A stretch of 64,000 nucleotides of DNA from an uncultured Clostridia bacterium (GTDB lineage Bacteria; Bacillota; Clostridia; Christensenellales; UBA1242): NCBI GenBank assembly GCA_944349765.1, contig CALVNN010000003.1:5786-69785 (forward strand), in the 5' to 3' direction. The notes beneath the pieces were generated by a model. The model did not search any database and was not told where the DNA came from. It worked only from the letters and a program-made list of their open reading frames with translations. Below, in pieces: positions 3,263 through 49,110 of this stretch (positions are counted from its first letter, which is position 1; each line of letters starts with the position of its first letter). The translations under genes and the position numbers were made by a program.

Positions 3263-4678
3263 ATGAAATATGATGATAAGGATTTAGATACAAAATACAA
3301 TGAGTTTGTAGATAATAGCGAACAAATACATTTGAATTGCAATAGTAAGGAAGAACTAGATGTTTTTAATATTTATCAACTCAGATATTTAGGGTGGCAG
3401 GTAGGAGTACGACGTCCAACCACCTATAAAAAAGCTGAATTAATTGATGAGATATGGAGTGTATATACTGGTGAGAAAAAGCCACATATAAAAGCCTCCA
3501 AAAAAGGTAATTCTTCCAAAAATTTAGAGAAACTACAGGGGTTGACCCAAAAAGTTGATGAGTCGTCTTTAAGCGATAAATTCTCATTGACAAAGTCGCA
3601 AATACTTACTTTAAATAGTAGTTCGTATGATTTTGAGAGGGCTGAAGAACTTTCTAAAGTTGACGTGTGTGGATTGGTGTTAAAACAACAAGAATACTAT
3701 GTGCTTATTCCAAATAATTGGTGTGATGACGTTTATTTTATTCCAAATATTGTCGTAGAAAAATACCATTTAAGTACTGGTGACTATATAGAGGCTAAGG
3801 CTGAGAGTAAGGAAGACTTTAATCGTTTGATAGTCACTAAAGTGATAAATATTAATGGCAACCCTATAGATTATTCTACAAACATAGACTTTATGGTTGC
3901 AAAACCTATTGATACTAAGAAAGAATTATTCGTATCTACAAATGAAGTCGAAAAATCTGTACTAAATACTATTTGCCCTATCAAAACTGGTGATAGAGTT
4001 ATCATTTGTGCAAATGATAAACTAGAGCTAGTTACTGGAATTTATTCTATTGTAAAAAAATTATCTCTTAATCCTAATAATGAAATAGTGTGTATATTGT
4101 TAAATTCAACACCTGAGCATATAAAAGTTTTTGAAAATATTGAAAATATAAGATTAATTTCTGCTTCGTTTGATGTGGACGACGTGTGTCAAACTGGTCA
4201 ATTCGAATTAGCCTTAAAACACATTCAGCGTTTAGTAACAAAGACGGAAAAAAATGTCATAGAAATTGTGGTGGATATAGATAATGTTATTTCAGAGTTT
4301 AAAAAAGCTAATATATCTAAAGAAGATTGTATGAAATTGTTAGACCAAAATTTTAGTCTAGCTAAAAATATTCAAAATAATTCCTTGACAATTATGTATG
4401 GAATGTTATACAATAATGATGGTTATTTGGAATTCAATGGAACGGAAAATGTCAAGATTGCTCTAACTGATAGGCAAATGCTTACTATCAGTGACTACAA
4501 GATAGATATTTTAAATACTTATCGTACTGATATGTCGTCTTTGTACGAAATAAATGAGCTAGACAAGGCAATTAGGACATTTGTCGCTTTGGGTGATTAC
4601 AATTCGCAACACTTGAAATTCGAACAAATAATGAAGTCGTGCAGTAGTGTAAAGGATTTACTTGAAAAATTAAAATAG
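3263..4678 (+). CDS. Rho-like protein (Rho_N plus CSD-like RNA-binding plus RecA-fold architecture) with a degenerate Walker A motif
   Basis: The protein lines up with E. coli Rho (from memory). [27 protein letters not shown] matches [50 protein letters not shown] matches [36 protein letters not shown] matches LLIDERPEEVTEM. The GKT P-loop is absent. Confidence 0.6.
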   Translation: [471 protein letters not shown]

Positions 4679-8638: not shown

Positions 8639-8872
8639 AAATGCTCCTTAAATTTTGTATATAATATTTATTATAACCATTAAACCTAAAAAAAGCAAAT
8701 GTTGTAGATAAATTGGTGAAAAAATGCTTAATTAATGGTAAAATTTTTACAACAAAACATAAATTTGTACAAATTTTCACATTTTTGAATAAAAATTGTA
8801 CAAAAATAGTTGAGTTTTTAAAAATTATTTGTTATTATGTCACTACAAAACAACAATTTGAGGAGATTTTGT

Positions 8873-9559
8873 ATGAAATATTTTACGTGCTTAATTTTAA
8901 GTAATAGTGAGGGGAGGTTAAATAATTTAACTGAATTAGCTAAGACAAACGACTTTGTTGTAGTTAAGACACGTTCAGTTGTTGAGTTTATACATGCTGT
9001 GGGGTTTTATAAACCAGAATGTATTTTAATAGATGTTGACTCGTTTTCGGGAGATGATGTCATAAAATTGGTGCTAAACTCGGATAAAAAGTATTTGAAA
9101 GATGCTATTGTCCTTAGTGAGATTGAGCTAGACGGTTATACTTGCATAAATTTTGATAATGTGTCTAATATGCTTAATCTCAAAAAGACCGCTATTACTG
9201 AGAAAAAATTAATCAGTTTTACCGATGAGCAACTGTCTACCGCTAGTAGTGCCATTCGACAAAAGCTTATAGAGCTAGGATTTATTCCGAAATATAATGG
9301 ATTTCATATGCTTGCAGAGATTGTGTTGCTTTGCTGTATAAACCATGATAGTGCTAATATGCATAAATTCATTTTACCAGCTGTGGCTCATAAGTTTGAC
9401 ACGACTGTGAGCAATATTACGCAGTGTGTACGTAAAAGCATCAAGTGTAGAGATGTAAGGAAATATGATTATCCTTATGAAAAGCCTACGCTCAAACAAA
9501 TGGTAAAATATATAGATGAGTTATTGAATGATAAATTTTTGGAAATTATGCATAAATAG
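8873..9559 (+). CDS. Spo0A C-terminal (DNA-binding) domain protein with a degenerate receiver-like N-terminus
   Basis: Start moved to the ATG at 8873, downstream of a GAGGAG. GFHMLAEIVLLC...ILPAVAHKFDTTVSNITQCVRKSIK resembles the Spo0A_C segment KGYLYLREAI...[25 protein letters not shown]. In the N-terminus the acidic DD pocket is replaced by LSNSEG and the conserved Lys is absent. Confidence 0.55.
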   Translation: MKYFTCLILSNSEGRLNNLTELAKTNDFVVVKTRSVVEFIHAVGFYKPECILIDVDSFSGDDVIKLVLNSDKKYLKDAIVLSEIELDGYTCINFDNVSNMLNLKKTAITEKKLISFTDEQLSTASSAIRQKLIELGFIPKYNGFHMLAEIVLLCCINHDSANMHKFILPAVAHKFDTTVSNITQCVRKSIKCRDVRKYDYPYEKPTLKQMVKYIDELLNDKFLEIMHK

Positions 9560-10062: not shown

Positions 10063-10091
10063 TTGCAAAATATGATAGATGTGGTTATAAT
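10063..10091 (+). promoter_or_regulatory. sigma-A-type promoter (TTGCAA, 17 nt, TATAAT)
   Basis: -35 at 10063-10068 and -10 at 10086-10091, with a 17-nt spacer. It lies upstream of the small ORF at 10195. Confidence 0.55.
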
Positions 10092-10423: not shown

Positions 10424-10449
10424 CAATATAATAGTAAGGAGAGATGCAT

Positions 10450-13400
10450 ATGCAGAAGAGTAAAAAGAGTACGGTGATATTATCGGCAATAATGATAATA
10501 TTATCTGTATGCCTAATATTAGGTGTCACCTTAGCATATTTTACCGACACAAGACGAAGTGAAAGTGCAGTGAATTTTGGTAAGATAGAGATAAGTGTAG
10601 ACGAACCATTTTCAGAGGAGGTGACGCTAAAGGATGTATTGCCAGGTGACAAACTAACCGATGCTATTAAGTTTAGCAAAGCGGTAGATAGTGAACCTAT
10701 GTACATAAGGGCAAAAGTATCCTTTGAGTCAGATGATGCAAGTCTATCTAGTCTTATAGATGAGCTAAACACTTCAGCTATAGAGACTGTGGATGGGACT
10801 GACTATGTATGGAGTGGTAAGAAAGGTAAGTTTTATTATCTAGTAGAGGCAGGAGATACTAGTAGGGCTTTTGCTGTATGCGATACTAGTGAGATAACTC
10901 TAACTAACGCAATAGAATTACCTAGATCATTAAACCAAATGGCAGACTATGGTCAGTATTTCAAAGAGATTACGCTCAAAGTAGAGCTTCAAGCAATACA
11001 AGTGGCTAGTGTAAATAATAATATCATAGAGATAGACTCAGTGTTTGAAGAACTATTTGGAGAAGCTTATTATACCTTTGATAATCTCTATGAAGTGACA
11101 GGGAATACTATAACAGGTTTAAGCGAAGAAGCTAAGACCTTTAGTGAGCTTACAATCCCTACTAGCTATGAGAGAGATGGCGAGACAATTGACATTACTA
11201 GGATAGGTGCAAGTGTATTCCAAGATAATGAGAATATAGTTAGCTTAAGCATACCAGAGGGTATAACGGGTATAGGCGAGTATGCCTTTAACGGAGCTAC
11301 CAATCTAACTAATATAACACTCCCTACCGGTATAACTAGTATAGGTAGAGACGCATTTGTAGATACCGCATGGTACAATTCTCAAGCTGACGGGCTAGTA
11401 TACGCATCAGATTGGTGTATAGGCTATAAAGGTACAGTACCTACTACTTTGACATTTAGTGATACTTGTGTAGGTATAGCTGACTATGCCTTCTATAACT
11501 GTACAGAGCTAACCGGTACGCTTACTTTACCAGCAAATATCGTGTATATAGGTCAACACGCTTTTGACGGCTGTACAAATCTAACAGTAGTAGACTTTGA
11601 GGGTAATCCTGTGTCTACTCCAAGTGGAGCATATGCAGGTGTAAATAACGCTCAAGGTGAAAGTACTATGGCTTTGACCAGTATAGGTACAAGTGCTTTC
11701 TATAATTGTACATCTTTAAACGCAGTACATATAACCGACCTTAAAGCATGGGTAAGTATAAACTTCAGTAACGCACAGGCTAACCCATTATATGAAGCAG
11801 GTAATCTATATCTGAATGGTGAGGCACTAGTAGACTACACTATGCCTAGTGATATAACCAAGATACGAGCATACTCATTCTACAATTGCCAAAACATTAC
11901 TGGTACTCTTACTCTTAGCGAAGGAGTGAATATAATAGGACTAAATGCATTTAGTAATTGTTCTAATATGTTGACCTTATCCTTACCAGAGAGTCTCTGG
12001 ATAGTAGGTTACAACGCTCTAAGCGGATGTAGCAAACTAGTCCAAGTAGAGAATAAACCAAACCTATCTTTAAGTGGGCTACCAAACAACGCAGGACAAT
12101 CTGTAGCTACTGACGCTAGTGAATTTACCAATTCTATTAGTACAGTAAATGATAAGTACATAATACTAACAGATACTACAGGAACCACAACAAATAAATA
12201 CTTAGTAGGTCTAGTAGATACATCTATAACCGATGCTACAGATATACCAAATGATGTATCTTATATTTATCCAGATGCATTTAGTGCTAGTAGTAATCTA
12301 GATTTAGTATTACCTAGCGGTATTACAACGATATCCGATAAAGCATTTAATGGTATAGATCTAAAAAGTGTAGTAATTCCAGATACTGTAACTACTATAG
12401 GCGCTAACGCATTCCAAAATTGCACAAACTTAACTAGTATAACAATAGGAGATGGTGTAACAGATATAGGTGTTAGTGCATTTGCAAATTGTACAAACTT
12501 AACAAGCGTGACAATAGGACAAGGTGTAAAGAGTATAGGAAATTCAGCATTTAGTGGTTGTACAGGACTAACAGAGATAAACTATAATGCAATAAATTGT
12601 GAAGATTTATCTGCAAGCCCATTTTCTAATGTGGGACAAAATACAGAGGGGATAACGGTAAATATAGGAGCAAGTGTACAAAGAATACCAGCATGTTTAT
12701 TTTATTCTGGCAACACAAATAACGCACCAAATATAAAAAGTGTCACAATAGGAGAAAGTGTAGCAAGCATAGGTGGTCAAGTGTTTTGGGGTTGTACAGC
12801 TTTAACTGAAATAAACTATAATGCAATAAATTGTGCGGATTTATCTTCTGGTAGTAGAGTATTCTTTCAGTCAGGACAAGCTACAGATGGTTTAACAGTA
12901 ACTATAGGACCAAATGTACAAAGGATACCAGCATACTTATTTTATGAATCTGGTTCAAATTTTGCACCAAAGATAACAAGTGTAGTGTTTGAAGAAGTAA
13001 GTCATTGTGAAAGTATTGGTAATTATGCGTTTAGGAGCTGCTCAGGTTTAGCTAGAGTAGTGTTGCCTTCAAATGTACATTATTCTACATACTCATTCTC
13101 AGATAGTACAGTAATTGTAAATATTAGTGATCTAGAAACTGAGTATAACAATGCATACTATCGTGGCGTAGGGGATAATCCTTACCATACTCTAGTGATA
13201 TCAAAAGATACTTCTATAACTAGTTGTCAAATACACCCTGATACAGTAGTAATAGCTGAAGAAGCATTTTATAATTGTAGGAATTTAGAAAGTGTCGTAT
13301 TTGAGGGAAATAAATGCACAACTATAGGAGATTATGCTTTCTATTATTGTAGTAATTTAAATATAGAATTACCAAGCAGTTTAACGATTATAGGTGAAAA

Positions 13401-16400
13401 TGCATTTAGATATTGTAATAGTATAACTAGCATTAAAATTCCTGAAAATGTAAGTAGTATAGGCGAATATGCTTTTTACAATTGTGAAGGGTTAACAAGT
13501 ATAGAAATACCAGAAAATGTAACGAGTATAGGTCGTTCTGCATTTTTAGCTTGTTACGCCTTAACAGAAATTAAGTACAATGCAATAAATTGTAGCGATT
13601 TAGCTTCTGATAGTGCTATATTCCAAAGTTCAGGACGAGACACAAATGGAATTACAGTAACAATAGGAGCAAGTGTGCAAAGCATACCAGCTTATATATT
13701 TAATGGAGTGTCAAAGATAACTAGCGTAGTGTTTGAAGGGGAAAGTCAGTGTATAAGCATAGGGAATTATGCATTTAATGGGTGTTCAGCTTTAACCAGT
13801 ATAAGTATTCCTGATAAAGTAATGAGTATAGGTGAAAATGCTTTCGGTAGTTGCTTTGGATTAACCAGCATAACAATCCCAGAAAGTGTAACAAGTATAG
13901 GTCGTAATGCATTCTATGATTGTACAGGATTAATAGAGATAAACTATAATGCAACGAATTGTGATGATCCAATTGATAGCATATTTATTTATGCAGGGAA
14001 AAATAATAGCGATGTTACGTTAACAATAGGGGCAAATGTTCAAAAGATTCCAGCATATTCGTTTTATAATTCAAGAATAACAAAGGTAGTGTTTGAGGAT
14101 GGAAGTCAATGTACAAGTATAGGAAACTATGCATTTAGGAATTGTAGTAATTTAACTAGCATAAGTTTCCCTAATAGCTTAACTACCATTGGAGATTACG
14201 CTTTTGCTGATTGTAGTAACTTAAATGGCATCACTATTCCTAGCACTATAACCGATTTAGGTGCAGGTGCATTTGATGGGCTTACATATACAACAGAATA
14301 TGATAATGCTTATTATTTAGGTGTGGGAGATAATCAATACTATATGCTACTCAAAGCAAAAAGTACCTCTATAGAAAGTTGCGAAATTAATTTACAAACA
14401 GTAGTTATTAATGCTAGTGCTTTTGAGGGATGTACATCGCTAAAAAATATTAGCATACCAGAAAATGTAAAAAGAATAGGTGCAAGAGCTTTCTATGGCT
14501 GTAGTGGGTTAATTGATATAACTATGCCAGAAAGTCTAACAAGTATAGGTGAGTGGGCTTTTTATAATTGTAGCAGTTTAACAAGTATTACAATACCTAC
14601 TAGAGTAGCAAATATGGGAAATTATGCATTCTATAATTGTACAAAATTAACAACAATAAACTACAATGCGGTGGGTTGTAATGACCTAGCTAATAATAAT
14701 AACGCTTTTAGATATGCAGGCAATTATGCAAGTGGCATAACAGTAAATATAGGAGCAAATGTTCAAAGAATTCCAGCATATTTATTTAATCCTTATAATA
14801 GCTCAAGTTACGCACCAAAGATAACAAATGTGAAATTTGCCGAAGGAAGCCAATGTGAAGAAATAGGAGATTATGCATTCTATTATTGTAGAAACTTAAC
14901 AAGTGTAACATTACCAGTAGATACGATTTATAGTTCGACTTCATTTAGTAGTAGCACTTCAGTTGAGGGTGGGTTTATTCAAAGTGACGCTGACGCTATT
15001 GAATATGACAATGCCTATTATTTAGGTGTAAATGGCAATCCGTATCATACTTTAGTAAAAGCAGTAAGTACCGATATAACTACTTGCACTATACATGAAG
15101 ATACTGTGGTAATAAGTGCTAATGCGTTTGAAAATTGTAGTAGTTTAACTAGTATAACAATTCCAGAAAATGTAGCAAATATAGGAAATTATGCTTTTAG
15201 AGGATGTACAGGTTTAACCGAGATAAACTACAATGCAACGAATTGTGAAGATTTAACATCTAATAGTTTCGTTTTCAATAATGCTGGTTCAACAGAAAAT
15301 GGATTAGGTGTCACAATTGGTGCAAATGTAGAAAAGATTCCAGCGTATTTATTTAGAGGCATTTCAAAAATGACAGGTGTTTTGTTTGCGGAAGAAAGTC
15401 AGTGTGCAAGTATAGGGCTCCGTGCTTTCTATGGTTGTACTGGTTTAACAAGTATAACAATACCAAAAAGTGTAACAAATATAGGAGGACAGGCATTTTA
15501 TAATGCTACAGCATTAACAGAGATAAACTATAATGCAACGAATTGTGCAGACTTGTCTTCTAACGCTGGAGCATTTTACAACGCAGGAAACATAGGAGGT
15601 GGGATACAATTAAATATAGGTAAAGGTGTGCAAAGAATACCAGCAAGTTTATTTGGTGTGCAACACTATGATAGCAACTTCGCACCCAAAATAACAAGTG
15701 TAACTTTTGAGGGTGAAAGTCAATGCGCAAGTATAGGCAATTATGCTTTCCAGTATTGTGATAGCTTAACGGATATAGTAATACCAGACAGTGTAACGAG
15801 TATCGGAAATTCTGCATTTTCTTATTGTATAGATTTACAAAGTGTAACAATAGGGCAAGGCGTAACAAATATAGACCATAATGCATTTAGTAACTGTACA
15901 AAATTAACTGAGATTCACTATAATGCAACTTATTACAATGACATATTATCTAATAATTACATTTTTATGCGCACTGGTTCAACAGAAAATGGATTAACTG
16001 TTACTATAGGTAAAAATGTACAAAGGATTCCATCATATCTATTTTATAGTTCAAATATTTCAAGCGTAGTATTTGCTGAGGGTAGTCAGTGTACAAGCAT
16101 AGGAATTTCTGTGTTTGGTAATTGCTCTAGACTTACAGAAGTATATATTTCAAGTATAAGTGAATGGTTACAGATGCAGTTTGAGGGATCCACCTCAAAC
16201 CCATTAGGTTATGCGAATAAACTTTATGTAAATAACCAATTAACTACAGAAATAACAATACCAGAAAATGTAACAAGTATAGGAAATTATGCGTTCTACA
16301 GTTTTACAAGCTTACAAAGTATAGCAATAGGTCAAGGTGTAACAAGCATAGGTAGCTACGCATTCTATAATTGTAATAATTTATCAACTATAACAATACC

Positions 16401-17691
16401 AGATAGTGTGACTAGTATAGGTAGTTATGCATTATCTAGTTGTACAGGCTTACAAAGTGTTACAATAGGACAAGGTGTTACAAATATAGAGAATAATGCA
16501 TTTTATGGTTGTACAAGCCTATCAGAGATAAATTATAATGCAACAAATTGTGAAGATCTATCTTCTGATAATCAAGTATTCTATAATGTAGGACAAAGTA
16601 CAGATGGCGTAACTGTAAATATAGGCGCAAATGTACATAGGATACCAGCATATCTATTTAATCCAAGCGACAATTCTAGCTATTCTCCTTATGTTTCAAG
16701 TGTAATATTTGATAACGGTAGTCAGTGTATCAGTATAGGTGACTATGCATTTGCTTATTCTAGTAGTTTATATGAAATAAATTTGCCAGATAGTTTGGTA
16801 AGCCTAGGTCATTACGCATTCTATAATTGTTATGTATTAACTGATATTACTATACCAGTTAATGTCAAAGCTATAGGTTATTGTACTTTCAGTAACTGTA
16901 TAAATCTGATGTCTGTAACAGTTTCAAGTACATTAAAGTATATAGATTTCAATGCTTTTTACGGATGTGATGGATTGTCTGAAGTGGTTTATAATGGAAC
17001 AGATGCAGAGTGGCAAGAATTAATAAACAATACAGAAAGTGGCAATGAAGACTTTATAGAGCACAACGGGACTATAAATCTTTATGATATGCAAGTAAAT
17101 GCGTATAGTGTAGATGGTAGCACCAAGACAGCATTTGATAATAATTTTGAAGTAATTAAGGCTGATGGAACTGTGGTAACAGATAATATACAAGTCTATG
17201 CTGGTGAGCGTATAGGTGTTAAGTTGTTTACTGAAGTTATAAACGGTAAATATTATCAAGTAAGCTCCATCAAGTTAAAATTGAGTGATGGAAGCACACA
17301 AACCATCAATGCAAATATAATAAATGCTATATATGATGAGAGTGAAATGTTCTACTTCTTTGTACCAGTTACAGTAAGTGGTGCAGTTAGTCTAGAGCTA
17401 GAGTACACTCCATTCCAAATATTAAATATTGATTTAACTTCCAGTCAAGCAAGCTTTTTGACTTATATTTATAAGACTGGCGGCGGTACGATGTTTGAAA
17501 CAATTCGTCTTAATCAAGAGAATTTATTTAAGTTGTGGAATGGCGAATATAGAGTAACTTTACCAGACTTTATAGGGACTATAAAATATGAAGATGGTTC
17601 AACAGCTGGGACTTTCACGACTACTTGTGATGGTACACAGATAATGATATACGTTGAAGGTGAAGATAATCCTAATGTTATCATAATATAA
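10450..17691 (+). CDS. giant secreted protein: SipW-type signal peptide, TasA/camelysin-like N-domain, BspA-type leucine-rich repeats (LRR_5), and a beta-rich C-terminal region
   Basis: The ATG at 10450 is preferred over 10444 because it lies 7 nt from AAGGAG. N-terminus KKSTVILSAIMIILSVCLILGVTLAYFTDT is followed by VLPGDKLTDAIKF (TasA has LKPGDKLTKDFQF). Dozens of repeat units of the type ITIPxSVTSIGxxAFxxCxxLTS follow. No LPXTG motif and no C-terminal TM helix. Confidence 0.8.
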   Translation: MQKSKKSTVILSAIMIILSVCLILGVTLAYFTDTRRSESAVNFGKIEISVDEPFSEEVTLKDVLPGDKLTDAIKFSKAVDSEPMYIRAKVSFESDDASLSSLIDELNTSAIETVDGTDYVWSGKKGKFYYLVEAGDTSRAFAVCDTSEITLTNAIELPRSLNQMADYGQYFKEITLKVELQAIQVASVNNNIIEIDSVFEELFGEAYYTFDNLYEVTGNTITGLSEEAKTFSELTIPTSYERDGETIDITRIGASVFQDNENIVSLSIPEGITGIGEYAFNGATNLTNITLPTGITSIGRDAFVDTAWYNSQADGLVYASDWCIGYKGTVPTTLTFSDTCVGIADYAFYNCTELTGTLTLPANIVYIGQHAFDGCTNLTVVDFEGNPVSTPSGAYAGVNNAQGESTMALTSIGTSAFYNCTSLNAVHITDLKAWVSINFSNAQANPLYEAGNLYLNGEALVDYTMPSDITKIRAYSFYNCQNITGTLTLSEGVNIIGLNAFSNCSNMLTLSLPESLWIVGYNALSGCSKLVQVENKPNLSLSGLPNNAGQSVATDASEFTNSISTVNDKYIILTDTTGTTTNKYLVGLVDTSITDATDIPNDVSYIYPDAFSASSNLDLVLPSGITTISDKAFNGIDLKSVVIPDTVTTIGANAFQNCTNLTSITIGDGVTDIGVSAFANCTNLTSVTIGQGVKSIGNSAFSGCTGLTEINYNAINCEDLSASPFSNVGQNTEGITVNIGASVQRIPACLFYSGNTNNAPNIKSVTIGESVASIGGQVFWGCTALTEINYNAINCADLSSGSRVFFQSGQATDGLTVTIGPNVQRIPAYLFYESGSNFAPKITSVVFEEVSHCESIGNYAFRSCSGLARVVLPSNVHYSTYSFSDSTVIVNISDLETEYNNAYYRGVGDNPYHTLVISKDTSITSCQIHPDTVVIAEEAFYNCRNLESVVFEGNKCTTIGDYAFYYCSNLNIELPSSLTIIGENAFRYCNSITSIKIPENVSSIGEYAFYNCEGLTSIEIPENVTSIGRSAFLACYALTEIKYNAINCSDLASDSAIFQSSGRDTNGITVTIGASVQSIPAYIFNGVSKITSVVFEGESQCISIGNYAFNGCSALTSISIPDKVMSIGENAFGSCFGLTSITIPESVTSIGRNAFYDCTGLIEINYNATNCDDPIDSIFIYAGKNNSDVTLTIGANVQKIPAYSFYNSRITKVVFEDGSQCTSIGNYAFRNCSNLTSISFPNSLTTIGDYAFADCSNLNGITIPSTITDLGAGAFDGLTYTTEYDNAYYLGVGDNQYYMLLKAKSTSIESCEINLQTVVINASAFEGCTSLKNISIPENVKRIGARAFYGCSGLIDITMPESLTSIGEWAFYNCSSLTSITIPTRVANMGNYAFYNCTKLTTINYNAVGCNDLANNNNAFRYAGNYASGITVNIGANVQRIPAYLFNPYNSSSYAPKITNVKFAEGSQCEEIGDYAFYYCRNLTSVTLPVDTIYSSTSFSSSTSVEGGFIQSDADAIEYDNAYYLGVNGNPYHTLVKAVSTDITTCTIHEDTVVISANAFENCSSLTSITIPENVANIGNYAFRGCTGLTEINYNATNCEDLTSNSFVFNNAGSTENGLGVTIGANVEKIPAYLFRGISKMTGVLFAEESQCASIGLRAFYGCTGLTSITIPKSVTNIGGQAFYNATALTEINYNATNCADLSSNAGAFYNAGNIGGGIQLNIGKGVQRIPASLFGVQHYDSNFAPKITSVTFEGESQCASIGNYAFQYCDSLTDIVIPDSVTSIGNSAFSYCIDLQSVTIGQGVTNIDHNAFSNCTKLTEIHYNATYYNDILSNNYIFMRTGSTENGLTVTIGKNVQRIPSYLFYSSNISSVVFAEGSQCTSIGISVFGNCSRLTEVYISSISEWLQMQFEGSTSNPLGYANKLYVNNQLTTEITIPENVTSIGNYAFYSFTSLQSIAIGQGVTSIGSYAFYNCNNLSTITIPDSVTSIGSYALSSCTGLQSVTIGQGVTNIENNAFYGCTSLSEINYNATNCEDLSSDNQVFYNVGQSTDGVTVNIGANVHRIPAYLFNPSDNSSYSPYVSSVIFDNGSQCISIGDYAFAYSSSLYEINLPDSLVSLGHYAFYNCYVLTDITIPVNVKAIGYCTFSNCINLMSVTVSSTLKYIDFNAFYGCDGLSEVVYNGTDAEWQELINNTESGNEDFIEHNGTINLYDMQVNAYSVDGSTKTAFDNNFEVIKADGTVVTDNIQVYAGERIGVKLFTEVINGKYYQVSSIKLKLSDGSTQTINANIINAIYDESEMFYFFVPVTVSGAVSLELEYTPFQILNIDLTSSQASFLTYIYKTGGGTMFETIRLNQENLFKLWNGEYRVTLPDFIGTIKYEDGSTAGTFTTTCDGTQIMIYVEGEDNPNVIII
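12571..16780 (+). repeat. nine divergent copies of an ~80-130-codon super-module inside the LRR gene
   Basis: The module reads LTEINYNA(I/T)NCxDLSS...G(I/L)TV(N/T)IGANVQRIPAYLF...APKITSVxFxxxSQCxSIGNYAF. DNA copies of the ATAAACTA(T/C)AATGCAA(T/C)(A/G)AATTGTG core start near 12571, 12811, 13570, 13941, 14657, 15222, 15521, 15913 and 16527. Three EYDNAYYLGVGDNPYHTLV modules start near 13141, 14296 and 15001. Confidence 0.85.
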
Positions 17692-17700
17692 ATAAAATCA

Positions 17701-17737
17701 AGATTTGCTTAAAAACAAATAAGCAAATCTTTTTTTA
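17701..17737 (+). terminator. rho-independent terminator
   Basis: Perfect 10-bp stem AGATTTGCTT/AAGCAAATCT followed by T7. Confidence 0.85.
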
Positions 17738-17743
17738 TTTAAT

Positions 17744-24773: not shown

Positions 24774-27700
24774 ATGAAAAAGAGTAAAGTTGCAAGTCTT
24801 TTAGTTTGTATTATATTTGCTGTCTGTTGTTTTACTGGATGTGGACAAGATACTACGTATAAAGTAAAAGACTTAAATGTGTCTTCTGCCGTGCTTAATG
24901 GTATGAAAGTGTATACATATGATGAGATAAAAAATCAGAAGGTTACGATAAGGCAACCTGTAATGGAAGTGTTAGAGCGGGGCTTAAGTAGGACTGAGCC
25001 TCAAGTTATGTTGGATACATTTACATTACCTAATACTGACGTTTCTGTTACTTTTTCCGATTATCCTGGTCAAGGGCATTCGGTCAGTATGACTAATTTT
25101 GAAAAATATATGTTATTAAGGCAAGCGACATATAATAGAGACAATGCACAAGCAATGGCGGAAAATGGAACACTCAAAAAACATCCGGCTGCCGATATGC
25201 AATATGGTGCAGTACCAGTTGCAAATAATGCAGTCAAAAAACGCATCATTACAGATCCTGACTATAAAAATTCTTATCTTACAACGGGGTTGTATTTACC
25301 AGCTGGAGAGATAGCGACTGTTACTATTAGTGGTTTAAAAAATGGTGAAAGCATTCAATTAACTACGCAGTTACAACAATCTTTAGCTTGGGTAGCTGGA
25401 GGTTATTCGAATGAGTCTCAGTACTTTACGGCAATGGATAATCTTATAATACAGGAGTCTCAGTCTGAAAATCCTAATTATAATAGTTTGGATATAAAAT
25501 TGCACTCACAGTATTCAAGACAAAATACTGAAATACCTGTCTTAGGTGTAACATTTACTTTTACTGAAAATAAGACATACAAGATAGGCAGTGCTTTTGG
25601 CGGACAACTACATATTGCTAGTACGAATGCATCTACCCCAGTTAAAATGGAAATAACTGGTTGTGTAGAGACGCCTCATTTTATACTAGGTGTGACAAGC
25701 CCCGAATATTTTGAAGAGTATTTACGAGAAGCTCCAGGTGTGATGTGTACTTTGGACACAGAGAATGGTCAATTAGTCGGTCCAGCTAGCTATATGAGGC
25801 AGACGGATGATATTTTGAAAGTAGCATATATGTGGCATTCTAATTTTGCAATTGATGTTTCTTTTAATGGGCGAGCTTATAACTACGCAAATATTTTGAA
25901 ATTTGACCGTCATGTGCCAGCCGGCAGTGCTGTAGCTCTCAATGCATACGTATCTGCTATGCCTGATGGTTGGTTGGGTTCGTGCTTGAACTTTGAAAAT
26001 TTTAAAAAATACGGCAATTGGGGTACATTACACGAATTAGGACATATGCACGATAATGCTTATGGTATGACATGGGGTATGGCTAGTAATCAAGAGGGCG
26101 AAGTCCGTAATAATGTATTGACAGTCTTAAATTATCTATTAACTTGTGATATGGACCCTAGAATTACTAATATTGAACATGGCGAATCAATGCATCCATT
26201 TACAGCACTTCAAAGTATGCTAAATATATCTAATAAGACAGATTATGCTAATTTAGGCTATTTTGAATGTGTGTCACTATATGCTAATATTATGCATCAA
26301 TTGTCACCTGAAAAATTTGTGGAATTATTGTATTCATATTCAGATACTAAAAGGTACGTAAGCAATTCACGAGCCGATTTTGCCTATAGGCTTAGTGTAG
26401 TATATGGCTTAGATTTTCGTCCTTTCCTTAATGAAATGTATTATGCAAATGTAACTACAGATATGTTTACTGAAGAGCAATTGCTGAATATGGACAAGCT
26501 AGATGAATTTTGGCCTATAGCTTGTTATTATGCGAATGGCGTGGGGAGTAGTGAGACCGCAAGTAAACATAAAGTAGATTTAAAGGCAGAGACAACTTTT
26601 GATTTTGCTAATATGATTATTTGTCCTAAGGATTTTAGTATAGTAGAAATTACGGATGCAAAATATGGATCTATAAAAAAGGTGAATGATACTGAAGTGG
26701 TTTATACTCCGCCAACTGGAAGTTATGAAACGGATGAGTTTTCTGTAATTTGTCAGATAGAAGACGGACTTAAAATAGAGCTTCCTATCCGTTTGCAATT
26801 AACCACAAATGGTGAGTCTGCTTTGGATTTGGGTGATAAACCTATGTTTGTTGCTAGTATAAAAAATTTTACAAGTAAAAACATTATTGATAAATCAAAA
26901 TGGAATGTTATTGAAGCTCCAATTCCTGAGACCGCTAATACTGATCCTAATGTGCTAATTGATGGTAGTGCGTCTACTTATTATCATACTAAATATACTG
27001 GTGGGACAAAGACTCCAATGCCTCATAATTTTGTGATTGATATGGGGCAAGTTAACAAAATTGACTTCTTCCAAGTAGATGTGAGAAATAATGCAAATAG
27101 TTTTGTAAATGATTACGAATTGTATGCATCTATAGGTGGCGAGGAGTATGATTTGATTTCGTCGGGTACGCTTAACTACAATGGCACAACTGCATTAATT
27201 AATTTCAACATCACTGAAGCAAGATATTTAAAATTTGTGGCTGTATCTGCTACAGGGGGAACGTTTACTGTAATTTCTGAGTTTACGACAGGTTTATCAG
27301 CCGAAGTGCAAAAAGTCGTAGCACCAAATGCTGAAGAAAATTTTTATAATGGGTTTGAGACATCAAATCAAGGTGGCGGGCTTGTATCCACTACTAAAGA
27401 CAGCGTGCTTGTAATGTCTTTTGAAGGTGAACAATTTGCTTTGTTTGCTAATACCTCTCAAAACTCGGGTAAAATAGCTGTCTACATAGACGGTGAGTTG
27501 GGGGATATAATAGATTTAAAGGATGAACTATCTTTATCTACTTTAGTCTATAAATCTAAGTTGCTAGAAGATAGACCACATACTGTAGAAATTAAGACAT
27601 TAGATAACTCGGAGGTGCATTTAGGTTATATGACAATAGGTTATGAAGCTACACTACTCAATTCTGCAAATATATATAAAGAACAAGCTTTGACTATAGC

Positions 27701-27929
27701 ACTTGTGATATTTTGTGTGCTATTTGTAATACTTTTAACATTTATTATTTTATACTTTAAGTTTCCAAAATTTAGATTAAGTGTTAATAAGTTGTTTAGT
27801 ATAGACAATCAAGTTGCTGTACAAAATGCTGATAATAGTAAAATAGACGATGCAGATAAAAAGAGCTTGAGTAGTACAAAAAAATCTAAAACGACGAAGA
27901 AAAAATCATCAACTAATGACAAAAAATAG
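24774..27929 (+). CDS. M60-like (enhancin-type) zinc metallopeptidase lipoprotein with an F5/8-type-C-like carbohydrate-binding region and a C-terminal TM anchor
   Basis: Lipobox CCFTGCGQD. HELGHMHD (nt 26031-26045) sits in a context typical of peptidase M60 (GTLHELGH...QEGEVRNN). NVLIDGSASTYYHTKY...FVIDMGQ is discoidin-like. A TM helix (LTIALVIFCVLFVILLTFIILYF) is followed by a K/S-rich tail. Confidence 0.7.
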   Translation: MKKSKVASLLVCIIFAVCCFTGCGQDTTYKVKDLNVSSAVLNGMKVYTYDEIKNQKVTIRQPVMEVLERGLSRTEPQVMLDTFTLPNTDVSVTFSDYPGQGHSVSMTNFEKYMLLRQATYNRDNAQAMAENGTLKKHPAADMQYGAVPVANNAVKKRIITDPDYKNSYLTTGLYLPAGEIATVTISGLKNGESIQLTTQLQQSLAWVAGGYSNESQYFTAMDNLIIQESQSENPNYNSLDIKLHSQYSRQNTEIPVLGVTFTFTENKTYKIGSAFGGQLHIASTNASTPVKMEITGCVETPHFILGVTSPEYFEEYLREAPGVMCTLDTENGQLVGPASYMRQTDDILKVAYMWHSNFAIDVSFNGRAYNYANILKFDRHVPAGSAVALNAYVSAMPDGWLGSCLNFENFKKYGNWGTLHELGHMHDNAYGMTWGMASNQEGEVRNNVLTVLNYLLTCDMDPRITNIEHGESMHPFTALQSMLNISNKTDYANLGYFECVSLYANIMHQLSPEKFVELLYSYSDTKRYVSNSRADFAYRLSVVYGLDFRPFLNEMYYANVTTDMFTEEQLLNMDKLDEFWPIACYYANGVGSSETASKHKVDLKAETTFDFANMIICPKDFSIVEITDAKYGSIKKVNDTEVVYTPPTGSYETDEFSVICQIEDGLKIELPIRLQLTTNGESALDLGDKPMFVASIKNFTSKNIIDKSKWNVIEAPIPETANTDPNVLIDGSASTYYHTKYTGGTKTPMPHNFVIDMGQVNKIDFFQVDVRNNANSFVNDYELYASIGGEEYDLISSGTLNYNGTTALINFNITEARYLKFVAVSATGGTFTVISEFTTGLSAEVQKVVAPNAEENFYNGFETSNQGGGLVSTTKDSVLVMSFEGEQFALFANTSQNSGKIAVYIDGELGDIIDLKDELSLSTLVYKSKLLEDRPHTVEIKTLDNSEVHLGYMTIGYEATLLNSANIYKEQALTIALVIFCVLFVILLTFIILYFKFPKFRLSVNKLFSIDNQVAVQNADNSKIDDADKKSLSSTKKSKTTKKKSSTNDKK

Positions 27930-39517: not shown

Positions 39518-41119
39518 ATGGCGTTGAAAAATATAAACGAAATAGCAAATAAATTAAAGTTTAATGAAGAAGATATTATTCCTTATGGTAAATTTATCGC
39601 TAAGATTGCTCGTAAACCAAGTAAGCAAAAGGGGAAGTTGGTTCTTGTAACAGCTATCAATCCGACGCCCTCAGGTGAAGGGAAAACTACAGTCAGCGTA
39701 GGTCTTGCTGATGCATTTAATTTAAAGGGAGAAGCGGTGTGCTTAGCCCTAAGAGAGCCTTCTTTAGGACCTGTATTTGGTATGAAAGGCGGTGCGACAG
39801 GTGGCGGACTATCTAGAATTGAGCCGTCGAAATCTATTGACTTACACTTTACTGGTGATATACACGCTATCACGTCGGCAAATAATTTGCTTTGTGCTAT
39901 GATAGATAACCATATTTATTTTGGCAATGAATTAGGATTTGATAAAGTTACCTTTAATAGATGCATGGATATGAATGATCGAGCTTTGAGAAATATAGTT
40001 TGCGGTAGCGAGGGTTGCAGAAGGGAAGAAAAATTCAATATCACTGCTTCTAGTGAGATAATGGCTATACTATGTTTAGCTAAAGATATGGAGGATTTGA
40101 AACGTCGACTTGGCAATATTGTTGTTGGCCTTACTAAAAGTAATCAACCAATCTACGCGAAACAACTTAAAGCCGAAGATGCAATGTGCGTACTTTTGTT
40201 TGACGCAATTAAGCCTAATTTAGTACAGACCCTAATAGGGACACCAGCAATTGTACATGGAGGACCTTTTGCAAATATTGCACATGGGTGTAATAGTATT
40301 ATCGCGACAAACACCGCTTTGGGATGTGCTTCTTATGTGATAACCGAAGCTGGTTTTGGTGCGGATTTAGGTGCGGAAAAATTTTTTGATGTCAAGTGCA
40401 GAAAAGCCAATTTAAAGCCTGATGCGGTAGTGCTAGTGTGTACTATCAAGGCACTTAAATACAATGGCGGTGTGGAAGTAAAAGATTTGCAAGCGCCTAA
40501 TGTCGATGCTGTAGTAAAAGGTAGCGTAAATCTTATAAAACATATCAAAAATATTAAGGAAGTATACAAATTACCACTTGTGGTGGCAATTAACCGATTT
40601 GCTAGTGATAGTGAAGAAGAGATTGAAGTCGTTAAAAATATTGTTAATAAGTTTGATGTGGATTGTGAAGCCGTTGATGTATTTGGCCAAGGTGGGCAAG
40701 GTGCGTTAGGTTTGGTTGATAGGGTTATCAAGGCTTGTGATAGCAAAAATGAATTTACTTTTGCTTATCAGGACGAGGACGACATTGTAACTAAGTGTAC
40801 AAAAGTTGCGTGTAAAATATATGGTGCTAGTGGGGTGGAGCTAACTGAAGAAGCAAAAAAAGACCTAGAGTATATCCAAGGTCTAGGTAAGGCACACTAT
40901 CCAGTTGTAATAGCTAAGACTCAATATTCTTTAAGTGATGACCCGAAAGCATTAGGAGCTCCTAGTGACTTTAAATTGAAAATAAGAGCTTTTGAGCTGA
41001 GAAATGGTGCTGAGTTTATTGTAGCAATAGCTGGGGATATAATGCTTATGCCGGGCTTAAGTAGAGAGCCAAGAGCTACAAAAATGAGATGCAATCAAGA
41101 CGATTTTAATTTAGCGTAG
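39518..41119 (+). CDS. fhs: formate--tetrahydrofolate ligase
   Basis: LVTAINPTPSGEGKTT, EPSLGPVFGMKGGATGGG and VHGGPFANIAHGCNS. Confidence 0.9.
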   Translation: MALKNINEIANKLKFNEEDIIPYGKFIAKIARKPSKQKGKLVLVTAINPTPSGEGKTTVSVGLADAFNLKGEAVCLALREPSLGPVFGMKGGATGGGLSRIEPSKSIDLHFTGDIHAITSANNLLCAMIDNHIYFGNELGFDKVTFNRCMDMNDRALRNIVCGSEGCRREEKFNITASSEIMAILCLAKDMEDLKRRLGNIVVGLTKSNQPIYAKQLKAEDAMCVLLFDAIKPNLVQTLIGTPAIVHGGPFANIAHGCNSIIATNTALGCASYVITEAGFGADLGAEKFFDVKCRKANLKPDAVVLVCTIKALKYNGGVEVKDLQAPNVDAVVKGSVNLIKHIKNIKEVYKLPLVVAINRFASDSEEEIEVVKNIVNKFDVDCEAVDVFGQGGQGALGLVDRVIKACDSKNEFTFAYQDEDDIVTKCTKVACKIYGASGVELTEEAKKDLEYIQGLGKAHYPVVIAKTQYSLSDDPKALGAPSDFKLKIRAFELRNGAEFIVAIAGDIMLMPGLSREPRATKMRCNQDDFNLA

Positions 41120-42072
41120 AATTCTTTTGGTAAAGTGCATGAGGTAGGGGCTTTATCTGTGCGGATACCTTTGAATATAGGCTGACGCATACCTAAGTTG
41201 TCGGTCAAAAGCATATATTCTACAGTGCAAACTAGCTTTGGCTTTATCCATATGACGTCATATTTGATTTCTTTTAATAATGTTATCTGGTATGGCGGTG
41301 AATGAAGTAAGTTGTCTAAAGCAAAATTTAGTATAGTGTCAATATCAAACTTGCTAAATCCGAAGTATATACTAGAGCGTAATACTAGATTTTTGCCTTT
41401 GTATTGTGCTAGTAACAAATCTTTTGGCTTATTTGATTCTATTGTGAAGCCAACTATTACAAAGTCTTCATCTTTCCAATTTTTTATCTTTAGCCAATTA
41501 TGAGTGCGTTTGCCTATTAGGTACTTACTATCTAATCTTTTTGCTACTATGCCCTCCATATTGTTTGCTTTTACTATTTCAAATAATTCTTTTCCCTTTT
41601 CTAAGATTCCTTGAGATAGTTCTATGAAGCTATTTGGCGTGACGGTTTGCCGTAGGAGGTTTTCTCGTTCGGTTAAAGGTAGGTTAGTTATGTCTTTTCC
41701 ATTTATATATAAAATGTCAAATGCGACAAATTTTGCGGGGAGTTCACTTGCTAGACGCTTTATCTTTTTAGCGTCTTTTAGGTGGGCCCTTTTTTGAAGC
41801 CCGCTAAATAAAGGGCGTCCATCTCGGTCAAGTATTACTAATTCGCCATCAAGTATACATTCTTTATTTACTTGTTTGTTGATATCTTTTAGTTCCGGGT
41901 AGGTGGCGGTTATATCTACAAAACGTTTATTTTGAAGATATACGCCATTTTTACTTAGGTGAGCTATTGTCCTAGCACCGTCCAATTTTACCTCAAAATA
42001 ATAGTCTTTGCTGTTAAAAGGCTTATCTATTTCTTCTAATAGCATCGGAGATATGTTTTCGTTTATTTTCAT
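41095..42072 (-). CDS. ligD: ATP-dependent DNA ligase, LigD ligase-domain only
   Basis: Adenylation motif I FEVKLDGAR plus nucleotidyltransferase and OB-fold motifs (EGIVAK, WLKIK). At 325 aa it has no polymerase/primase or phosphoesterase domain. Confidence 0.8.
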   Translation of the reverse strand: MKINENISPMLLEEIDKPFNSKDYYFEVKLDGARTIAHLSKNGVYLQNKRFVDITATYPELKDINKQVNKECILDGELVILDRDGRPLFSGLQKRAHLKDAKKIKRLASELPAKFVAFDILYINGKDITNLPLTERENLLRQTVTPNSFIELSQGILEKGKELFEIVKANNMEGIVAKRLDSKYLIGKRTHNWLKIKNWKDEDFVIVGFTIESNKPKDLLLAQYKGKNLVLRSSIYFGFSKFDIDTILNFALDNLLHSPPYQITLLKEIKYDVIWIKPKLVCTVEYMLLTDNLGMRQPIFKGIRTDKAPTSCTLPKEFYAKLKSS

Positions 42073-42854
42073 TTAACCCTTCTTATTTTTGGTTTTTCCT
42101 CAGCTTTTTCTTGTTCTTTGAGGCTCTTTTTTAGTGCGTCAAGTAGGTTTATTACATTAGGTGGACGATTAGATACTACTTGTTTAATCTGCTTGCCATT
42201 TATTTTAGTTTGTATAGCGTTTAATAATCTTTCGTGATAGTCGTCTTTATAATCACTAGCTTTAAATGGCTTAGTCATACTTTTTATTATATTTAAGGCA
42301 AGTTTATATTCCTCGCTATTTTTGGCAGGTGCTTTGACCGCTTTTGTAGGATTTGCTTGAACTTCTTCATAAAAATACATTGTACTCATTACTAGCGAGC
42401 CGTCTTTTGCTCTAATGACTATTAAGCTTTCTTTTGTGCCTAATATGCTCTTAGCTATGGCTACTTTATTTTCTTTTTGCATAGCATTTACTAATAAAGA
42501 GTAGGCTTGTTCCGCTCCGTTTGGAGAGACATAATAGCTCTTTTCATAGTATATGGGGTCTATATCCTTTAAGTCTGCAAATTGTAATATGGTAATTGTT
42601 TTGTCTTTTTTGGATTTTAATTTTTCAAAGTCATCATTGTCAAATGTCACATATTGGTCGTCGTCGTATTCATATCCTTTAACAATGTCTGAAGCTTGCA
42701 CTTCTCCATCACATTCTGGGCAAGTTTTTATATATCTTATTCGAGAATTATATTTTTTATGTAGCATATTAAATCCAATGTCATTATTTTTTATTACCAA
42801 ATTTAATGTAACTGGGATGTACACCAAGCCAAATGATATTGCTGATTTTATCAT
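42069..42854 (-). CDS. ku: Ku protein (non-homologous end joining)
   Basis: ISFGLVYIPVTL N-terminus and a Ku core with a basic C-terminal tail. Its stop overlaps the ligase start (ATGA). Confidence 0.85.
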   Translation of the reverse strand: MIKSAISFGLVYIPVTLNLVIKNNDIGFNMLHKKYNSRIRYIKTCPECDGEVQASDIVKGYEYDDDQYVTFDNDDFEKLKSKKDKTITILQFADLKDIDPIYYEKSYYVSPNGAEQAYSLLVNAMQKENKVAIAKSILGTKESLIVIRAKDGSLVMSTMYFYEEVQANPTKAVKAPAKNSEEYKLALNIIKSMTKPFKASDYKDDYHERLLNAIQTKINGKQIKQVVSNRPPNVINLLDALKKSLKEQEKAEEKPKIRRVK

Positions 42855-47394: not shown

Positions 47395-49110
47395 ATGGAA
47401 AAGACATTAGAAAGAGTTTCACAAACCGATATAATTAATGGCACTTTGATAGTACCAGGTGATATCACTAAAATAAGTAATTTAGCGTTTCAAGATGTGA
47501 ATTGCGAAAGTATTAAAACTTTGTATTTACCAAAGAAACTTAAAGACTTGAATTTTGAAGGTTTATATAAACTGACTAATTTGAATAATATTATTATAGA
47601 TAATAATTGTATTACTAAGCTTGATAATTTAAAGTTACTTACTAGCCTTAAAAAGCTTACCATTGTTTCAGATGGTACTAGTGTAGAGCTACCTTATAAT
47701 AAACATTATAGATTTAAACCAAATACATCTAAGGGATTACTGATTTACTTCAATTCGACCTCACAAGGTGCTGTGTGCTTATTTAAAAAAGATGATAAAC
47801 TTATCAAGATAACTAATGAATATCTCATAGATTTTTTTGACAAGCAGGGCAAAGCCAAGATGAATGGGACATATACATATGATAAGGTCATAAATATTTA
47901 CCATTGGCGTAAAAAGAATAGATTTTTGCCTAGCAATGTTGTTATCTATAATATGCCATTGAATATGATTGATAATTATTATATCAATAATAATTGCAAA
48001 GTTTGGGGAAAATTAATACAAGAATTAAATGTTACCCCAGAGAATATAGAACCTTTCTTTAAATGTTGTTTGTCACTTGGCATTTTTGATACAAGTAGTA
48101 AAACACGTGATAGAGCTTATGATTATATAACAAATACAAATAAGCTGTTGCCGCTTGAAATGTGGGTTAATTCTTTTCGTAATTGTAATACTGAAAAATT
48201 TGGCTTTAGAAAAGAATTTGCGGAGTTTTATTTAAGAAATTGTCAAACTCCTATTACATTCCTTACTGATGTAAATGATGAAAAAAGCTATGTTTCAGAT
48301 ATGTATAACAACTTAAATAGGATAAACAAAATTTACGCAAACAAAGTAATAAAAACTAATAGAAGAGCAGACTTATTGACTGAGAGAATGGTTATTTCAG
48401 CACTTAAAGACATACATAATCAAAATCAAGCTTTGATTGATTCAATGAATGAGGAAGCTTACCAATCTTTAGCTTCGACTGCTTGTAGGTATGGCTATTC
48501 AGCGAGTGATTGTGTTAAACTTGAGCAACTATTTATTAAAGCCAGTGAACGATTGTCTGAGTTTAATTTTGAGCCAGTTCGTGAGTCAACAGACATAAAC
48601 TTTGAATTGCTTAATAAGTTAGACCCTATATCCATAGCTTTAGGGGATATCACAAATTGTTGTCAAAAACTGGGTGACAATGGTGAGGAGTGTATGAGTT
48701 ATGGTGTTACCGAACCTAATTCGTGTTTTTTGGTGTTTAGGCGAAGTGATACTATACTTGGACAAAGTTGGGTATGGTTTGACAAAATTAAAAAGGTTGT
48801 TTGTCTAGATAATATAGAGGTGCCATACAAAATAGTAGCAGATATGCGAAAACATCAGGAATTTGCTAGTGAAGTGCTAGACTGTATAGAACGTGCTTGC
48901 AAGTATGTTTATAGTAATCTAAATGCTAAAGGTTTTAATGTAAAACAAGTCACAATTGGTAAAAGATTTAATTCTTTGAATGAGTTTTTGAGCAAAAAAT
49001 ATGAGATCAATAATAACGCTACTCTGCTTACTGGTTACCACGGTTATACTGATGCAAGAGAGCAGTACGTTGTATTTAATAAGGATTTAGAGGAAGATAG
49101 ACAACGATAA
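47395..49110 (+). CDS. hypothetical protein, N-terminal LRR-like region plus a Cys-rich C-terminal domain
   Basis: It starts 9 nt after the upstream stop, with an AGAGGA RBS. LRR-like NLNNIIIDNNCITKLDNLKLLTSLKKLTI. C-terminal LGDITNCCQKLGDNGEECMSYG...GQSWVWFD. No family recognised. Confidence 0.6.
   Translation: MEKTLERVSQTDIINGTLIVPGDITKISNLAFQDVNCESIKTLYLPKKLKDLNFEGLYKLTNLNNIIIDNNCITKLDNLKLLTSLKKLTIVSDGTSVELPYNKHYRFKPNTSKGLLIYFNSTSQGAVCLFKKDDKLIKITNEYLIDFFDKQGKAKMNGTYTYDKVINIYHWRKKNRFLPSNVVIYNMPLNMIDNYYINNNCKVWGKLIQELNVTPENIEPFFKCCLSLGIFDTSSKTRDRAYDYITNTNKLLPLEMWVNSFRNCNTEKFGFRKEFAEFYLRNCQTPITFLTDVNDEKSYVSDMYNNLNRINKIYANKVIKTNRRADLLTERMVISALKDIHNQNQALIDSMNEEAYQSLASTACRYGYSASDCVKLEQLFIKASERLSEFNFEPVRESTDINFELLNKLDPISIALGDITNCCQKLGDNGEECMSYGVTEPNSCFLVFRRSDTILGQSWVWFDKIKKVVCLDNIEVPYKIVADMRKHQEFASEVLDCIERACKYVYSNLNAKGFNVKQVTIGKRFNSLNEFLSKKYEINNNATLLTGYHGYTDAREQYVVFNKDLEEDRQR

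Follow-up and report, generated by a model that had tools for sequence, protein, structure and literature searches.

How might a secreted protein of 2,413 residues be held at the cell when it has no conventional anchor? This question is raised by a giant gene at positions 10450..17691 (+ strand) of a 64,000-nucleotide stretch of DNA, hereafter the window. The window was taken from contig CALVNN010000003.1 (positions 5,786 to 69,785) of an uncultured Clostridia bacterium (assembly GCA_944349765.1). In the encoded protein, a TasA/camelysin-like head domain precedes a very long array of BspA-type leucine-rich repeats (LRRs). Neither part is new in kind: one is a TasA-family domain, the other a BspA-type LRR array. 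What is new is the fusion of the two, together with the occurrence of the head as a common N-terminal module of many giant surface proteins. The original prediction, made from the letters of the sequence, had pointed to the fusion at this locus. I asked what the head is, how widespread it is, and what it may do.

The head domain and the protein behind it

The head occupies residues 30-205 (10537..11064, + strand), about 175 residues, and is assigned to the TasA/camelysin superfamily, with a predicted beta-sandwich (jelly-roll) fold, by the Pfam family PF12389, a family profile, an AlphaFold model and a Foldseek comparison. PF12389 (Peptidase_M73) scored 30.6 bits, above its gathering score of 22.5, but over residues 12-75 only. 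Because this match covers only the first third of the Pfam model, homology over the full domain required the family profile and the structure model. A search of the PDB with the single head sequence gave nothing relevant. With a profile of 42 diverse head domains (alignment A2), the best PDB match was the TasA fibre 8AUR (E 0.0028), and the TasA monomer 5OF1 came third (E 0.035). Positions 33-80 of this profile align with TasA 2-47, including the N-terminal F-x-D of the mature protein and the PGDK loop, and positions 173-197 align with the last strand of TasA, 187-211 (QAIQ versus EATQ). In the protein itself, residues 63-75 read VLPGDKLTDAIKF, and the domain ends in a conserved helix (residues 192-203). 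The mean column identity of the family is 24%. The most conserved columns are T27, A29, F31, D33, F43-G44-K45, P65-G66-D67, S81, Y85, R87, K89, W121, Y129-Y130, P158 and A182-Q184.

With the A2 alignment, AlphaFold predicted a beta-sandwich with a predicted local distance difference test score (pLDDT) of 90.5 and a predicted template-modelling score (pTM) of 0.79. This 42-sequence run was used instead of one with a 3-sequence alignment, whose pLDDT was 45. In a Foldseek search of the PDB, the TasA monomer 5OF2 had both the highest probability (0.97) and the highest template-modelling (TM) score (0.43/0.47 over 198 columns) among the matches listed. The query retained the 36-residue signal helix, which lowers its query-normalised TM-score. 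The predicted likeness to TasA was thus borne out by PF12389 and by the 8AUR match; as to structure, TasA does come out on top, but at a TM-score of 0.43/0.47 and an E-value of 0.04. Profile and structure evidence together indicate that the head belongs to the TasA/camelysin superfamily as a divergent member. With the other models it did poorly: it scored 21 bits with the TasA equivalog model NF046066, which needs 450, and 22.1 bits with the BsaA family model TIGR04090, whose cut-off is 60. By these scores the protein is a distant superfamily relative and no orthologue of TasA or BsaA.

The N-terminus of the protein reads MQKSKKS, then TVILSAIMIILSVCLILGV, then TLAYFTDT. The K-rich start and the hydrophobic helix ending in LAYFTDT are therefore as originally described, and this helix is the only hydrophobic segment in the 2,413 residues. 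The putative signal peptide comprises residues 1-29 (10450..10536, + strand), with a K-rich n-region, a 19-residue hydrophobic core and a T-L-A c-region, and is predicted to be cut before Y30 (YFTD), a position taken from the alignment to the mature N-terminus of TasA. In the NCBIfam scan, the model TIGR04088 (cognate_SipW) matched residues 16-34 with 20.5 bits, a small margin over the cut-off of 19. The N-termini of the family follow one pattern, basic / hydrophobic / (T,S)-(L,F)-A-(Y,F,W)-F-(T,S)-D. T27, A29, F31 and D33 all belong to the most conserved columns listed above, with T27 and A29 present in at least 90% of the family. It was also noticed that the T-L-A/Y site is compatible with the ordinary -3/-1 rule. 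The claim of a SipW-type signal therefore stands in part: dependence on SipW is plausible from the sequence, but it is not established, because the site fits the ordinary rule, the TIGR04088 score is marginal, and no sipW gene lies near the seven loci inspected.

The first residues of the mature protein form an N-terminal arm, residues 30-49 (YFTDTRRSESAVNFGKIEIS; 10537..10596, + strand). In the alignment of the profile to 8AUR it is collinear with TasA 28-47, which comprises the donor strand and a connector. F31, D33 and F43-G44-K45 of the arm are strongly conserved, the FGK being kept in about 60-80% of the family members. In the AlphaFold model, the arm has the lowest pLDDT within the head domain (67-77). 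Such uncertain packing is as expected of a segment that finds its partner in another subunit.

Behind the head, BspA-type LRR_5 arrays fill residues 231-2185 (11140..17004, + strand), about 1,950 residues made of 23-residue units with interspersed variant modules and ending in the cap ...VVYNGTDAEWQELI. The Pfam family PF13306 (LRR_5) scored 982.1 bits (E 1.5e-301) over 18 stretches, all lying between residues 231 and 2150; the end of the array near residue 2185 was located by reading the sequence itself. In the DNA, the repeats recur every 69 nucleotides, equal to 23 residues. These values agree with the roughly 2,000 residues of BspA-type LRRs in the original prediction. The LRR body also gave partial NCBIfam matches to HupY/LrrG and Gli349. 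The score with the HupY/LrrG equivalog NF047961 was 290.6 bits against the 1250 required, and the repeat type alone is in common. BspA of Tannerella forsythia and HupY/LrrG of Streptococcus agalactiae resemble the present protein in their extensive LRR_5 array, which is presumed to serve protein-protein adhesion. BspA is attached by the C-terminal domain of the type IX secretion system, and HupY/LrrG by an LPXTG motif. In contrast, no such anchor was found here, and the protein has an N-terminal TasA-like head instead.

The lack of a conventional anchor was looked into along the whole chain. None of the motifs LPXTG, NPXTG, SPXTG and LAXTG occurs anywhere in the 2,413 residues, whose C-terminus reads ...GEDNPNVIII. 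No SLH, choline-binding, cell-wall-binding repeat or LysM domain was found by Pfam and NCBIfam in the three protein segments scanned, and there is no C-terminal transmembrane helix, just as had been stated. The orphan C-terminal region (residues 2200-2413; 17047..17688, + strand; about 215 residues) contains neither a hydrophobic helix nor a recognisable anchor. It had no Pfam, NCBIfam or PDB match, no homologue in a word-indexed search (0 matches), and no match among the best 150 representatives of the head family described below. It could be a species-specific binding or wall-association domain, and an unrecognised wall-binding module could be hidden in it.

The head-domain family and its cargo

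Is this architecture a peculiarity of one protein? An exhaustive HMMER search that started from the head domain collected 680 cluster representatives at E <= 0.001; of these, 149 reach E <= 1e-10 and 58 reach E <= 1e-30. The matches cover essentially all of residues 1-210. Cargo, position and length were counted in the best 150 of the 680 representatives. The head is N-terminal in 148 of them. As for length, 56 have at most 300 residues, 24 have 301-600, 59 have 601-1,500 and 11 are longer than 1,500 (maximum 3,686). Those members of at most 300 residues that were checked are complete stand-alone genes. A phmmer search with the LRR body of the 2,413-residue protein found LRR_5-like arrays in 55 of the 150, which bears on the survey that had been suggested for TasA-like heads fused to LRR_5. 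The other long members carry Flg_new repeats, DUF285, DUF6273 or no annotated domain. Thus, the head-plus-cargo architecture is a widespread family and not a singleton.

Some members stand in tandem on related metagenome contigs. At locus L009 (312-4625), two complete stand-alone genes of 222 and 223 residues are followed by an 848-residue fusion of the head with LRR_5. At locus L008 (8643-18238), a 2,671-residue fusion without a Pfam-annotated body is followed by a 438-residue fusion of the head with Flg_new. Less exhaustive searches found far fewer relatives. The word-indexed homologue search had 2 matches for the head and 7 when the family profile was used. Among species-representative genomes, scanning turned up a single distant relative of the stand-alone kind, which lies in a metagenome-assembled genome of an uncultured Clostridia bacterium and has an uninformative neighbourhood; a scan of JGI metagenomes gave no match.

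Has such a fusion been described? Full-text literature searches found no paper combining SipW with leucine-rich repeats. TasA and LRR_5 together are mentioned in one paper, which is unrelated. A broad survey of the BsaA/TasA family makes no mention of cargo fusions (PMC11580942). The supposed rarity of the architecture is therefore true of the literature but not of the sequences, among which it is common.

The gene and its surroundings

The open reading frame (ORF) list of the window gives a + strand ORF at 10444..17691 (2,415 residues), and a second ATG at 10450 leads to the 2,413-residue product. The Shine-Dalgarno sequence AAGGAGAG (10436..10443, + strand), read from the sequence, lies 2 nucleotides before the ATG at 10444 and 8 nucleotides before the ATG at 10450. 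Because of the 8-nucleotide spacing, the start at 10450 is favoured, and this ATG is likely to be the real start codon. The coding sequence with its stop codon then spans 10450..17691, as had been predicted. Its exact product is present in the NCBI/ENA collections, where the identical 2,413-residue sequence forms a singleton cluster found on 4 contigs, the longest of 127,291 bp. On this 127-kb parent contig the gene is annotated with PF12389 and LRR_5. Other assemblies of the same organism break within the repetitive giant gene (L001). Since the identical protein occurs on 4 contigs, an assembly artefact was rejected.

What controls the gene? In the 454-nucleotide intergenic region upstream, a consensus scan found the promoter-like site TTGCAA-17-TATAAT (10063..10091, + strand; 10 of 12 matches). 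Promoter-like sites are no more frequent in this region than in its shuffles, so the site is weak evidence for a promoter. A terminator-like hairpin with a 12-bp stem and a following T-run lies at 17700..17741 (+ strand; consensus scan), 9 nucleotides past the stop codon. Since this hairpin follows the stop codon, the sequence suggests that the gene is a monocistronic unit. No riboswitch or other Rfam element was found in the region upstream of the gene, and control by cyclic di-GMP was dropped for this reason.

The surroundings are housekeeping and sporulation genes. A protein with a Spo0A_C domain is encoded upstream, and SpoIVA, Obg and UvrC, identified by precomputed Pfam labels, are encoded downstream. 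The GC content is about 33%. By the sporulation genes SpoIVA, SpoIIP, Gpr and that of the Spo0A_C protein, the host is placed as a low-GC, spore-forming, Clostridia-like bacterium. Upstream of the giant gene, an unannotated 471-residue protein (3263-4678, + strand) is followed by rpoZ. At locus L006 (6616-7917), a 433-residue protein with 27.7% identity to the 471-residue protein, and rpoZ, lie upstream of a 2,075-residue relative. This loose synteny suggests, at the level of sequence, that the adhesin locus was inherited vertically. An origin from a mobile element or prophage was rejected in view of the housekeeping flanks, the even composition and the loosely syntenic locus in the relative. 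Relatives at L005, L006, L008, L010 and L011 stand in unrelated neighbourhoods.

The Spo0A_C gene (8837-9559, + strand) is on the same strand as the giant gene and about 0.9 kb upstream of it, with a 118-residue ORF of unknown function in between. Its 240-residue product has the C-terminal DNA-binding domain of Spo0A alone (Pfam E 4.3e-9, residues 140-205) and no recognisable receiver domain. Spo0A governs tasA expression in Bacillus, and the 240-residue protein could be a local regulator.

Several other genes of the window were noted. A predicted lipoprotein of 1,051 residues (24774-27929, + strand; N-terminus ...CCFTGC) has a Peptidase_M60 enhancin-like domain and an F5/8 type C galactose-binding domain. 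M60 enhancin-like enzymes target mucin or glycoproteins, and the lipoprotein hints at a gut-mucosal lifestyle of the organism. A 571-residue ORF (47395-49110, + strand) without a signal peptide has no Pfam match at E <= 1e-5, and its N-terminus resembles LRR units (ISNLAFQD..., LKDLNFEGLYKLTNLNNIII). On the opposite strand (41095-42854, - strand), a gene for a Ku protein (261 residues) adjoins that of an ATP-dependent DNA ligase (325 residues). These two make up the bacterial non-homologous end-joining pair, which is typical of spore formers. The ORF of the tRNA m1G methyltransferase TrmD (60306-61712, + strand) has 468 residues, roughly twice the usual size, and is called likewise on the independent contig L013. 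It may be a fusion or an extension.

Possible roles of the head

What could a TasA-like head do at the front of an LRR protein? In TasA, residues 28-38 of the mature protein provide a donor strand that enters the next subunit, and their deletion abolishes fibres (PMC9674648). The preferred reading is that the 2,413-residue protein is a Sec-exported giant adhesin whose head serves as a link in a TasA-like fibre that displays the LRR array. Judged from sequence and from analogy, I give this tentative reading slightly less than an even chance. The head is read as a polymerising module because the arm of residues 30-49 is homologous to the donor arm of TasA and because stand-alone and fused paralogues occur in tandem, as at L009. 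In the proposed course of events, a signal peptidase, SipW-type or general, whose gene lies elsewhere in the genome would remove the signal behind Ala29. The freed arm (residues 30-49) would insert as a donor strand into the head of another subunit, which may be another copy of the protein or a small stand-alone paralogue of the head family. The head would thereby be built into a TasA-like fibre as one of its links, and this fibre may be a homopolymer or a heteropolymer. The LRR array would project from this fibre as a ligand-binding side arm or tip, and the LRR body would mediate adhesion to host or microbial surfaces. The newest subunit, its signal peptide not yet cleaved, might fasten the fibre to the cell, as proposed for BsaA. 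The head would then be an attachment device in place of a conventional wall anchor.

How far do known systems support this? The protein shares with TasA and CalY the special signal class of TIGR04088, and with TasA the collinear mature N-terminal arm and PGDK loop and the matched last strand; TasA is also the top structural match of the predicted beta-sandwich, with weak statistics. It differs in that TasA is a 261-residue single-domain protein encoded in tapA-sipW-tasA, whereas the head is the first 8% of 2,413 residues, with no sipW or tapA found nearby. The sequence similarity is remote, the structural similarity is modest (TM 0.43-0.47), and conservation does not extend to the core of the donor strand. 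Another parallel lies in BsaA and BsaB of Clostridium perfringens (TIGR04090), which are likewise clostridial TasA-family proteins with a SipW-type signal. BsaA oligomerises by a donor-strand route like that of TasA; it still does so on the cell surface when fused at its C-terminus to FLAG or FAST, and the oligomers appear to be membrane-anchored (PMC11580942). SipW has been proposed to cut BsaA only after strand exchange, and operons of BsaA paralogues have been proposed to form heteropolymers (PMC11580942). The latter proposal matches the tandem paralogue clusters of the head family. BsaA differs in belonging to a sipW-bsaA-bsaB-bsaC operon, while there is no sipW operon here, and in having no natural cargo domain.

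Precedents for cargo come from minor TasA-associated proteins. TapA of B. subtilis and AbpB of Pyrobaculum have been proposed to nucleate or anchor fibres, and AbpB also to carry FimH-like adhesin domains. They resemble the present protein in combining a TasA-type N-terminal strand with extra distal domains to make a fibre-associated adhesin or anchor (PMC9674648, PMC9245690). TapA may provide the first donor strand for the TasA fibre (PMC9674648), and an archaeal TapA-like protein with distal adhesin domains has been proposed as a FimH-like tip (PMC9245690). TapA has a donor-like strand and an unrelated beta-sandwich, and no sequence relationship between it and the 2,413-residue protein was detected. 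In contrast, the head appears to be TasA-like over the complete domain, with a donor arm as well as an acceptor body, so the protein could in principle sit anywhere in a fibre. FimH, PapG and the tip adhesins of sortase pili are alike by function alone, a pilin-like polymerisation domain being fused to a ligand-binding domain. None of them is homologous to the protein, and FimH shows the reverse order, with the lectin domain N-terminal and the pilin domain C-terminal. Unlike in chaperone-usher and sortase pili, no chaperone, usher or sortase is indicated here.

A number of results weigh against the fibre. The PF12389 match spans profile positions 9-70 of 196. The 5OF2 match is statistically weak (E 0.04, rmsd, the root-mean-square deviation, 5.9 Å, TM < 0.5), and Foldseek of the head model against the PDB had no match at E <= 0.001. 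Residues 34-40 of the arm, the counterpart of the donor-strand core in TasA, vary within the family, which also fails to conserve a hydrophobic residue at the position matching TasA I32. The C-terminal tail of TasA forms an inter-subunit interface (PMC9674648), and by analogy a C-terminal extension of 2,200 residues might disturb an interface of this type. The genomic context is no more favourable. In line with the original prediction, which had stated that the window has no sipW or tapA, no signal peptidase (S24/S26) or tapA was found among 30 other ORFs of the window scanned with Pfam. No second head-domain gene was found in the 64 kb, and no sipW, tapA or small paralogue in the 6.7 kb further upstream on the parent contig. 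No signal peptidase gene adjoins the family members at L005, L006, L008, L009, L010 and L011.

Several of these results would be explained as well if the head were a non-polymerising leader or stalk, that is, a module for export, folding or spacing. After ordinary cleavage the protein would be a monomeric LRR adhesin or agglutinin, released or loosely bound to the envelope, with no fibre. Camelysin is reported to stick non-covalently to the envelope. The cleavage site obeys the general -3/-1 rule, there is little conservation in the donor-strand core, most related loci, like the window, lack a linked sipW, tapA or paralogue, and the orphan C-terminus could be an unrecognised wall-binding module. 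Moreover, TasA exists as a soluble, self-complemented monomer (PMC9674648), and fibres therefore do not follow from the fold alone. It is hard to explain, on the other hand, why a spacer should keep the F-x-D...F-G-K arm motif so strongly at a mean identity of 24%. Stand-alone members of about 220 residues without cargo, found beside fused ones, argue for a function of the domain itself, and all characterised relatives (TasA, CalY, BsaA and AbpA) form filaments (PMC9674648, PMC11580942, PMC9245690). On balance, I consider a non-polymerising head rather unlikely, though an alternative to be taken seriously.

Could the N-terminus stay in the membrane? As an uncleaved signal-anchor it would make a type II membrane protein, in which the TasA-like domain is a membrane-proximal stalk pushing the LRR array through the wall. 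Its hydrophobic region of 19-20 residues is long enough to span a membrane, the helix in the AlphaFold model runs on to residue 36, past the putative cut site, and neither a dedicated peptidase gene nearby nor any other anchor in the protein was found. BsaA oligomers have also been reported to be membrane-anchored via an uncleaved signal peptide at one stage (PMC11580942). These points are opposed by the match above cut-off to TIGR04088, a model of cleaved SipW-type signals, by the small residues at -3/-1 (T27 and A29), conserved as a cleavage site requires, and by the homologous signals of TasA and TapA, which are cut by SipW (PMC9674648, PMC9245690). A permanent signal-anchor thus seems improbable. 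Hardly credible at all is a camelysin-type metalloprotease domain that would process its own protein or host substrates. The family name Peptidase_M73 in Pfam alone speaks for it, whereas residues 1-215 contain zero histidines and therefore no HEXXH or other zinc site, and the peptidase label of CalY is considered a likely misidentification (PMC11580942). With a head that lacks histidine, this function is effectively excluded.

To return to the fibre reading, what would it mean for the family? To my knowledge, all TasA-family fibres known so far are homopolymers that serve as biofilm scaffolds and are built from small subunits of a single domain. It is conceivable, though I consider it doubtful, that the family represents a general sortase-independent display system of Gram-positive bacteria. 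Giant proteins with diverse cargo, in a lineage of uncultured Clostridia, would be threaded by donor-strand exchange via their TasA-like head into fibres of small paralogues, and the last subunit, its signal peptide uncleaved, would fix the fibre at its base. PF12389 captures the family poorly (18 of 42 sampled members individually at E <= 0.001), and the family model would also be of use for annotating metagenomes. If the proposal is true, such proteins would be a Gram-positive functional counterpart of the tip or side adhesins of chaperone-usher pili, and their fibres would be a third route to adhesive fibres in Gram-positives, beside sortase pili and type IV pili. A head that carries a 2,200-residue adhesin would then explain how hundreds of anchor-less giant LRR proteins are retained at the cells of gut and environmental Clostridia.

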